Below, piece by piece: positions 39,541-39,715 of a DNA stretch of 64,000 nt (its first letter is position 1; every line of letters starts with the position of its first letter). The stretch is from assembly GCA_964489845.1 (NCBI GenBank), contig CAZAZV010000002.1, positions 770 through 64,769 of the forward strand, written 5' to 3'. A program made the translations under genes and the position numbers. The DNA is from an uncultured Candidatus Saccharibacteria bacterium (lineage in GTDB: Bacteria > Patescibacteriota > Minisyncoccia > UBA6257 > GWB1-50-10). The notes under the pieces are model-generated. The model was given only the letters and a program-made list of their open reading frames with translations, ran no database searches and had not been told where the DNA came from.

Positions 39541-39715
39541 GGTGAAGACCGCTACCCCCTGAAAAAGAACCCGCGGAGGGCGAACGGGCACGGTGTCCCG
39601 CCTTGGCGGGACGAGTGAGCCCGAGCGTGAACGCATCCCGCCGGCCGGGGCGGGATGACGTGTTTCGCTTCAGGGGCGTAGCGGGCGAAACATGGAATAA
39701 TAGAACTTGTCAGCA
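39541..39715. repeat. Family-2 structured repeat / candidate ncRNA (copy 1, about 175 nt), ends base-pair (ccgctaccccctgaa / ttcaggggcgtagcgg)
   Basis: Homologous to 56026-56240; internal hairpins gtcccgccttggcgggac and atcccgccggccggggcgggat. Confidence 0.5.

Follow-up and report, generated by a model that had tools for sequence, protein, structure and literature searches.

The stretch of DNA analyzed here, 64 kb in length and referred to below as the window, carries two copies of a genuine family of structured intergenic repeats that had not been catalogued before. The element is a noncoding, dispersed structured repeat of a reduced Parcubacteria lineage, being present in the source genome and in Candidatus Jorgensenbacteria. 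Both window copies lie on the plus strand, 16.5 kb apart, and are GC-rich, intergenic, and noncoding, with lengths of 140 nt (copy 1) and 207 nt (copy 2). An initial sequence-only reading had described them as a family of structured intergenic repeats and as candidate ncRNA, and the first part of this description is supported by a homologue in another genome that keeps every helix via compensatory changes.

A repeat search of the whole window aligned the two copies in a 5' block of 45 nt with 89% identity (39546-39590 and 56023-56067) and a 3' block of about 75 nt, the ungapped part of which covers 42 nt with 95% identity (39646-39687 and 56190-56231). The middles between these blocks, 34 nt in copy 1 and 103 nt in copy 2, are unrelated. 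The 28-mer GACGTGTTTCGCTTCAGGGGCGTAGCGG has exactly two occurrences in the window, compared with zero expected from shuffles, and GAGCCCGAGCGTGAACGC likewise occurs exactly twice. The blocks shared by the copies are therefore far beyond chance, and two related copies exist, as had been proposed. Both are more stably folded than dinucleotide shuffles, with z values of -5.9 for copy 1 and -5.8 for copy 2 (minimum free energies [MFE] are given in Table 1). The region of copy 1 is 100% identical in two independent Logan assemblies of the same organism (L015 and L016), which shows that this copy is not an assembly artifact. The intervals first reported, 39541-39715 and 56026-56240, are both somewhat wider than the structured units (Table 1); the reported right end of copy 1 overlaps a promoter-like site of rpmB, TTGTCA-17-TACACT, at 39707-39735.

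Table 1. Coordinates and structural features of the two element copies in the window (MFE in kcal/mol)
Feature	Position	Strand	Basis
Copy 1, whole element	39547..39686	+	R1 covariance-model score 109.9 bits; MFE -85.6
Copy 1, P1 5' arm GACCGCTACCCCCTGAA, partner 39669-39686	39547..39563	+	Pair table
Copy 1, internal loop AAA, precedes P1b	39564-39566	+	Pair table
Copy 1, P1b 5' strand GAAC, partner 39662-39666 (GTTTC, bulged T)	39567..39570	+	Pair table
Copy 1, P2 5' strand CGC-GGA-GGGC	39572..39581	+	Pair table
Copy 1, variable P2 tip, holds hairpin GTCCCGCCTTGGCGGGAC (39595-39612)	39582..39618	+	
Copy 1, P2 3' strand GCCC-GA-GCG, then invariant junction TGA	39619..39630	+	Pair table
Copy 1, P4 hairpin, 12 bp, bulged A, loop GGCCGG	39631..39661	+	Fold and pair table
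Copy 1, P1 3' arm TTCAGGGGCGTAGCGGGC, bulged C	39669..39686	+	Pair table
Copy 2, whole element	56024..56230	+	Repeat families D15 and D20; MFE -113.1; pair-table register as in copy 1
Copy 2, P1 5' arm, AAA loop, P1b 5' and P2 5' strands	56024..56058	+	Pair table
Copy 2, variable P2 tip, branched insert unique to copy 2	56059..56163	+	BLAST
Copy 2, P2 3' strand, TGA junction, P4 (56176-56205), P1b 3' strand, P1 3' arm (56213-56230)	56164..56230	+	

The third distinct member is a sequence of 103 nt in Candidatus Jorgensenbacteria (L010, 665-767, minus strand), which was first seen as weak two-block BLAST matches of the window copies to its scaffold. The same sequence recurs in L020 and, with an N-run, in L011. 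A covariance-model search of related genomes recovered this homologue: the model R1, built from the two window copies alone with their inserts removed, matches it over its full length with 80 bits, an E value of 2e-14, and zero noncanonical pairs. A second model, R2, was built from all three sequences. The family as known comprises three distinct sequences from two genomes, a small number that tells against a firm claim of copy number or of recent mobility.

The three copies share one fold, with a core of approximately 105 nt organized around a three-way junction, the strands of which are C, UGA, and none. The closing stem P1 measures 16 to 17 bp in all three copies and has a bulged C in the window copies; the complementarity previously noted between the 5' and 3' ends is thus borne out by arms that pair with that single bulge. 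Inside P1 lie an internal loop, with AA(A) opposite GC or GAC, and P1b, a helix of 4 to 5 bp with a bulged U. P2 has the form CNC-GGA-GGGC-tip-GCCC-GA-GNG, with a GGA/GA internal loop, and P4 has 12 bp with a bulged A. The earlier view of three internal hairpins has to be abandoned, since the core has two inner helices on the three-way junction, and what looked like a third is an insert that differs between copies and sits at the P2 tip. The unrelated middles mentioned above are these inserts, a hairpin in copy 1 and a branched structure in copy 2; the Jorgensenbacteria copy has 0 nt of insert and a GAA loop in the same place. Because of the long insert, the covariance model aligns only the 3' half of copy 2 correctly. 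No second copy of the branched insert was found by BLAST in the window or in any fetched locus, which rules out the idea that the P2-tip inserts are copies of another repeat.

Compensatory changes support this fold. In the alignment of the three sequences (A7), standard pairs occupy 118 of 119 pair cells, and both sides have changed in 14 of 40 pairs, compared with 0 to 1 in partner-shifted controls, which reach only 36 to 45% pairing. None of 500 shuffles attained the observed pairing and covariation values, and RNAalifold independently predicts 39 of the 40 pairs. Alignment A7 uses a structural register with N padding and was registered by hand; it agrees with the R1 alignment, which excluded the Jorgensenbacteria sequence. 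Among the changes, the AA/UU pairs of P1b in copy 1 are GG/CC in the Jorgensenbacteria copy, a G-C pair of P2 in copy 1 is U-A there, P4 has compensatory changes at five pairs, and the 5' strands of copy 2 form U-G and G-U wobbles where copy 1 has C-G and A-U. Between copy 1 and the Jorgensenbacteria copy, 51 of 78 paired positions are identical (65%), versus 17 of 19 positions of the unpaired core (89%, with the P4 loop excluded; Fisher p = 0.05). Stem sequences that diverge while keeping their pairing, around an unpaired core that stays fixed, are the pattern of a nucleic acid selected in its folded form, and the fold of the element is maintained by selection.

The two window copies lie among the genes that had been described as flanking them, and the proteins of these flanking genes assign the window to Patescibacteria/Parcubacteria. 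Copy 1 is situated between the gene of a K/E-rich protein of 416 amino acids (38228-39478, minus strand) and rpmB (39745-39960, plus strand), and copy 2 is situated between a gene with Sigma70_r4 and HARE-HTH domains (56240-57286, minus strand) and a DUF8128 gene (54698-55999, minus strand) that precedes a TraG/TrwB-like ATPase gene. The nearest relatives of the DUF8128 protein are found in GCA_964476325.1 (73% identity), an ENA contig (63%), and Candidatus Jorgensenbacteria GWA1_54_12 (57%). The spacer between the sigma-r4/HARE-HTH and DUF8128 genes measures 240 nt here versus 3 nt in Jorgensenbacteria, 53 nt in L014, and 51 nt in L021. In Jorgensenbacteria, the uvrC stop codon is followed after 5 nt by the element; in the window, 18 nt lie between uvrC (59475-60698, minus strand) and secD, and the element is absent. 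The copies occupy nonorthologous intergenic sites that are empty in relatives, and presence/absence polymorphism at orthologous sites, as in miniature inverted-repeat transposable elements (MITEs), is seen at both the copy 2 spacer and the site downstream of uvrC. The empty sites indicate that the copies were gained by insertion, and they point to an inserted mobile-type element at least as much as to a small RNA gene.

Some breaks and structures in relatives fall at the same places. In the closest relative, a scaffold gap of 100 N falls in the sigma-r4-DUF8128 spacer (L009, 1194-1293), and two independent assemblies of another relative (L017 and L018) both end 21 to 22 nt upstream of rpmB; such breaks would fit repeats at these sites but are no evidence of repeats. 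After uvrC, the closest relative (L019, 8260-8327) carries a long, GC-rich, imperfect hairpin, CAACCCCGAGG...CCGCCAGCCGGCGG...CCUCGGGGGUUG, with no U-tract, at the position where Jorgensenbacteria has the three-way-junction element. Its covariance-model score of 11.8 bits is too low for it to be included in the family.

In the gene-sense direction, copy 2 lies 9 nt past the sigma-r4/HARE-HTH stop codon. Its two codirectional flanking genes are both antisense to it, and the same is true of the Jorgensenbacteria copy; copy 1 alone points toward its downstream gene, rpmB, and lies upstream of the promoter-like site of that gene. The three copies have no target-site duplication, and their flanks (GTGAA before and GAAAC after; ACGCA and GGAGT; ACAGA and GAGGA) share nothing beyond an A directly before the element and a G directly after it. 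Solitary P1 arms were not found in the window, and the approximately 29 ORFs scanned in its 64 kb include no transposase, HUH, integrase, or recombinase gene. Three other interpretations of the sites were rejected. The minus-strand genes downstream of the two window copies are not paralogues sharing a leader (BLASTP E = 3.1), the direct copies do not bound a 16.5-kb island (synteny with L009 continues across copy 2), and the spacing is inconsistent with the element donating a -35 box to the next gene.

Searches for further members and for known families place the element apart from catalogued RNAs and repeats. With R1 and R2 run with filters off, no additional member was found in L009, L014, L017, L019, L021, L023, or the whole window, and the closest relative has 0 copies in the approximately 26 kb searched. 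The pattern CCGAGCGTGAACN{20,46}ACGTGTTTCG gave one chance match among genome contigs, in a Bacteroidaceae coding region, and one among metagenome contigs, in a transporter coding sequence; pattern scans of viral contigs gave chance matches or nothing. One viral-contig candidate (L025) was rejected, as it shares only the hairpin GGGCGAAGCCC and matches nothing in Rfam. Copy 1 has no BLAST match among phages and plasmids. A scan of the whole window with Rfam 15 at gathering thresholds returned tRNA-Gly only, and permissive searches of the three copies against all 4227 models (300-nt searches, E up to 10) yielded no family match, so that no known REP, MITE, or RNA class is assigned to the copies. 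The subthreshold scores were 13.3, 12.5, 13.5, 17.6, and 12 bits versus cutoffs of 37 to 126, and the best models, whalefall-1 with 13 bits and RsmY with 17.6 bits, are both far under their gathering scores. ARAGORN detected no tmRNA. In a comparison of core sequences by eye, none of hammerhead, kink-turn, Y-RNA, and retron msr-msd fits the element, and a full-text literature search returned no description of such an element in Patescibacteria.

Our preferred explanation, which we hold tentatively and at slightly under an even chance, is that the element is a nonautonomous, REP/MITE-like structured repeat whose folded single strand is recognized by a protein. It would spread, or would once have spread, by insertion as a nonautonomous REP/REPIN/MITE-like unit, and the folded strand, either single-stranded DNA (ssDNA) during mobilization or RNA, would be bound by a protein whose gene lies elsewhere in the genome. 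That protein would recognize a surface formed by the conserved junction and bulges, with P1 bringing together the ends of the element. An element inserted just past a stop codon and ahead of the promoter of the next gene would probably be carried passively, supplying at most a stable structure at the transcript end, and may be inert or mildly useful. This explanation is favored by the modular variable middle, by the insertion polymorphism at two sites, and by the low density of the element in relatives. The lack of a target-site duplication, of solitary arms, and of a transposase, HUH, or integrase gene among the ORFs scanned argues against it, and so does the plus strand, on which all four wobble pairs are G-U: it is antisense to genes at two of three loci, and it is not the one that should be exposed as lagging-strand template. 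In addition, an internal core kept across genomes whose orthologous proteins are approximately 57% identical is unusual for a purely selfish MITE and fits a functional RNA equally well.

That conservation leads to a possible but rather unlikely alternative, in which the copies are a multicopy gene for a trans-acting structured noncoding RNA (ncRNA) transcribed from the plus strand, perhaps protein-binding or even catalytic, with the junction core as its active or binding site. Covarying stems combined with near-invariant junction and bulge nucleotides are the classic signature of a functional RNA, and the pairing itself has a direction. All four wobble pairs of the pair table are G-U on the plus strand and none is G-U on the other strand, where the four become A-C mismatches, so that 118 of 119 cells are paired on the plus strand versus 114 of 119 on the minus strand; the plus strand also folds 1 to 10 kcal/mol more stably than its complement in all three copies. 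The plus strand has no A-C mismatches; these four events, with p of approximately 0.06, favor it weakly, and this preference conflicts with the gene context, in which two of three copies are antisense to both neighbors. Counts of G-U pairs in MFE structures were discarded as strand evidence and are uninformative, because the complement refolds differently. AT-rich, -10-like hexamers lie 10 to 17 nt upstream of copy 2 and the Jorgensenbacteria copy, but these are the reverse reading of the TGnTAnnnT promoters of the neighboring genes, and copy 1 is without one. Consensus scans of the plus strand, which are crude and deal with a lineage whose promoters are poorly known, detected neither a sigma-70-type promoter upstream of the element nor a terminator at its 3' end. 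The nonorthologous sites, empty in relatives, also count against an ncRNA gene.

The same gene context can be read from the opposite strand. A cis-acting mRNA element on the gene-sense (minus) strand, serving in 3'-end protection, as a processing mark, or in insulation or termination before the next promoter, would fit the starts of copy 2 and the Jorgensenbacteria copy only a few nucleotides past stop codons and the orientation of the copies, which is the same relative to the prevailing gene direction in all three; this reading is nevertheless unlikely. The minus strand folds well (z = -4.6 to -6.0), and within the element a scan of that strand picked up a hairpin with UCUUUUUC directly behind it. 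At each of the three loci, an extended -10-like box, TGnTAnnnT, is present on the gene-sense strand between the element and the next start codon, 6 to 10 nt before the latter (window 55999-56023 and 39479-39500; L010 768-794). Boxes this near the start suggest that the downstream genes have their own promoters and are near-leaderless or leaderless, and they suggest that mRNAs of the source lineage may be leaderless or near-leaderless more generally. However, the four wobbles are mismatches on this strand, as described above, and the U-run is internal, with 4 to 5 U, rather than at the 3' end of the element. No U-tract follows the element on either strand, and for this reason an intrinsic terminator was rejected; ordinary hairpin-plus-U-tract terminators occur elsewhere in the window (33000-33025, 12312-12341, and 45897-45922), and termination does not need a three-way junction with a conserved core. 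In addition, Jorgensenbacteria makes do with its 3-nt spacer between the same two genes that flank copy 2. A riboswitch or 5' leader was likewise rejected because orientation and position are inconsistent: copy 1 lies upstream of the rpmB promoter-like site, and the other two copies are antisense.

It seems quite improbable that the element represents a new functional structured RNA class that travels with, or as, a mobile element of candidate-phyla-radiation (CPR) bacteria, being either a three-way-junction RNA with catalytic, perhaps self-cleaving, activity or a handle, made of RNA or ssDNA, for an undescribed mobilization system; the active or recognition core would then consist of the invariant junction (C/UGA), the bulged U and A, and the GGA/GA loop. 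A site acting at the DNA level with no RNA role, of the attC recombination type or bound by a dimeric protein, is very unlikely, since its long imperfect inverted repeats, conserved extrahelical bases, variable center, and position directly past a stop codon in two of three copies are offset by the absence of RYYYAAC/GTTRRRY core sites and of a cassette array, by the L009 gene order that continues across copy 2, by the lack of an integrase gene among the ORFs scanned, and by stems that covary rather than being conserved in sequence, which argues against a double-stranded binding site.

The window contains other repeated and inserted sequences. A family of structured elements (family 1) has three copies with covarying hairpins, at 33120-33262 (minus strand), 35392-35545 (plus strand), and 45900-46045 (minus strand); an example of the covariation is GGGGGA..UCCCCC / GGGGAA..UUCCCC / GGAAGGGG..CCCCUUCC, and the terminal hairpin has the form GYYCCGCC-NNNN-GGCGRRAC. 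The hairpin previously proposed to be shared between this family (33126-33143) and the three-way-junction element has the same stem in both, but its loop differs and there are 1 to 2 mismatches. The last two hairpins of family 1 loosely mimic the P2-P4 arrangement (R2 score of 19.4 bits, with many mismatches), and a distant kinship of the two families is possible. Two of the family 1 copies adjoin fusA (EF-G, 33262-35391, minus strand), which is bracketed by relic copies of its own ends. The first relic repeats the final 72 nt of the gene through its stop codon (33050-33121, 86% identity with 33262-33333), and the second comprises codons approximately 5 to 19 behind another ATG (35544-35588, 84% identical to 35335-35379); each relic is separated from fusA by a family 1 element, and these two elements are inverted relative to each other. 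The arrangement looks like the outcome of a replacement in which a fusA cassette with inverted elements on both sides took the place of most of a resident fusA. In the DnaG primase encoded at 28243-31098 (minus strand), the zinc finger is separated from the catalytic core by a LAGLIDADG_3 domain (residues 227-289), which is probably an intein or homing-endonuclease insertion. Directly upstream of tRNA-Gly(CCC) (46083-46153, minus strand) is a perfect tandem duplication of 43 nt (46161-46203 and 46221-46263, spaced 60 nt), each duplicate of which ends in a small hairpin, GTCCCG..CGGGAC, and which may represent a promoter region that was duplicated. At 19600-19668, 22322-22390, and 22863-22931 there is a 69-nt repeat with the hairpin ATCCCGCCGCAGCGGGAT at its end, two copies being identical and one at 72%; it is 86 to 88% conserved in the closest relative, beside efp (L009, 4568-4631), and may be a shared leader, promoter, or terminator module. 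Pairs of direct repeats with 98% identity are also present, at 11758-11805 and 12258-12305 (48 nt) and at 61570-61630 and 62801-62861 (61 nt).

Candidate-phyla-radiation bacteria have tiny genomes, and we know of very few noncoding or repeated elements that have been described in them. The element would add a lineage-specific structured element to this short list, could mark genome dynamics in CPR episymbionts, and is a candidate for a protein-recognized or catalytic RNA or ssDNA module. Even if it is merely selfish, knowledge of it helps annotation, since short-read assemblies break at it and the spacers between genes are inflated by it.

Among known systems, REP and REPIN sequences, which are mobilized by RAYT (HUH Y1) transposases, are likewise short, GC-rich, noncoding, intergenic, and hairpin-folding, lack target-site duplications, and often lie past stop codons between codirectional genes with an orientation bias. 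GTAG/CTAC is present in the P1 arms of the window copies, and GTAG is absent from the Jorgensenbacteria copy. However, the arms of the element are not palindromic REP units, it forms a three-way junction with a conserved core rather than a single long hairpin, it is not built from 20- to 40-nt imperfect palindromes with GTAG arranged as two inverted units in one hairpin, and only 2 copies are present in 64 kb; we know of no RAYT gene in the source lineage. Bacterial MITEs and similar repeats (Correia/NEMIS, ERIC, RUP, BOX, and the Rickettsia palindromic elements) are likewise noncoding sequences of 100 to 200 nt with a modular interior, terminal inverted repeats, to which the 16 to 17 bp of P1 correspond, and presence/absence differences between relatives, and the Rickettsia elements also inhabit reduced genomes. 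They differ in that the element lacks a target-site duplication, in that no partner insertion sequence sharing its ends was seen, and in that it keeps its internal core across very distant genomes while its terminal repeats covary, the opposite of what MITEs usually show. Like the element, integron attC sites have a conserved structure with varying stems, conserved extrahelical bases, a variable center, a position past a stop codon, and hints of strand-specific folding. The element has no R''/R' core sites, its ends being GACCGC...GCGGTC and GGTCGA...TCGACC, and no cassette array or intI, and the neighbors of the two window copies are housekeeping genes syntenic with L009. The orphan RNA motifs of Rfam, such as the Weinberg sets, are likewise multihelix intergenic folds supported by covariation, from uncultivated lineages and with no known function, although the element matches none of the Rfam 15 models. 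The element is best filed among the bacterial dispersed structured repeats or the orphan RNA motifs.
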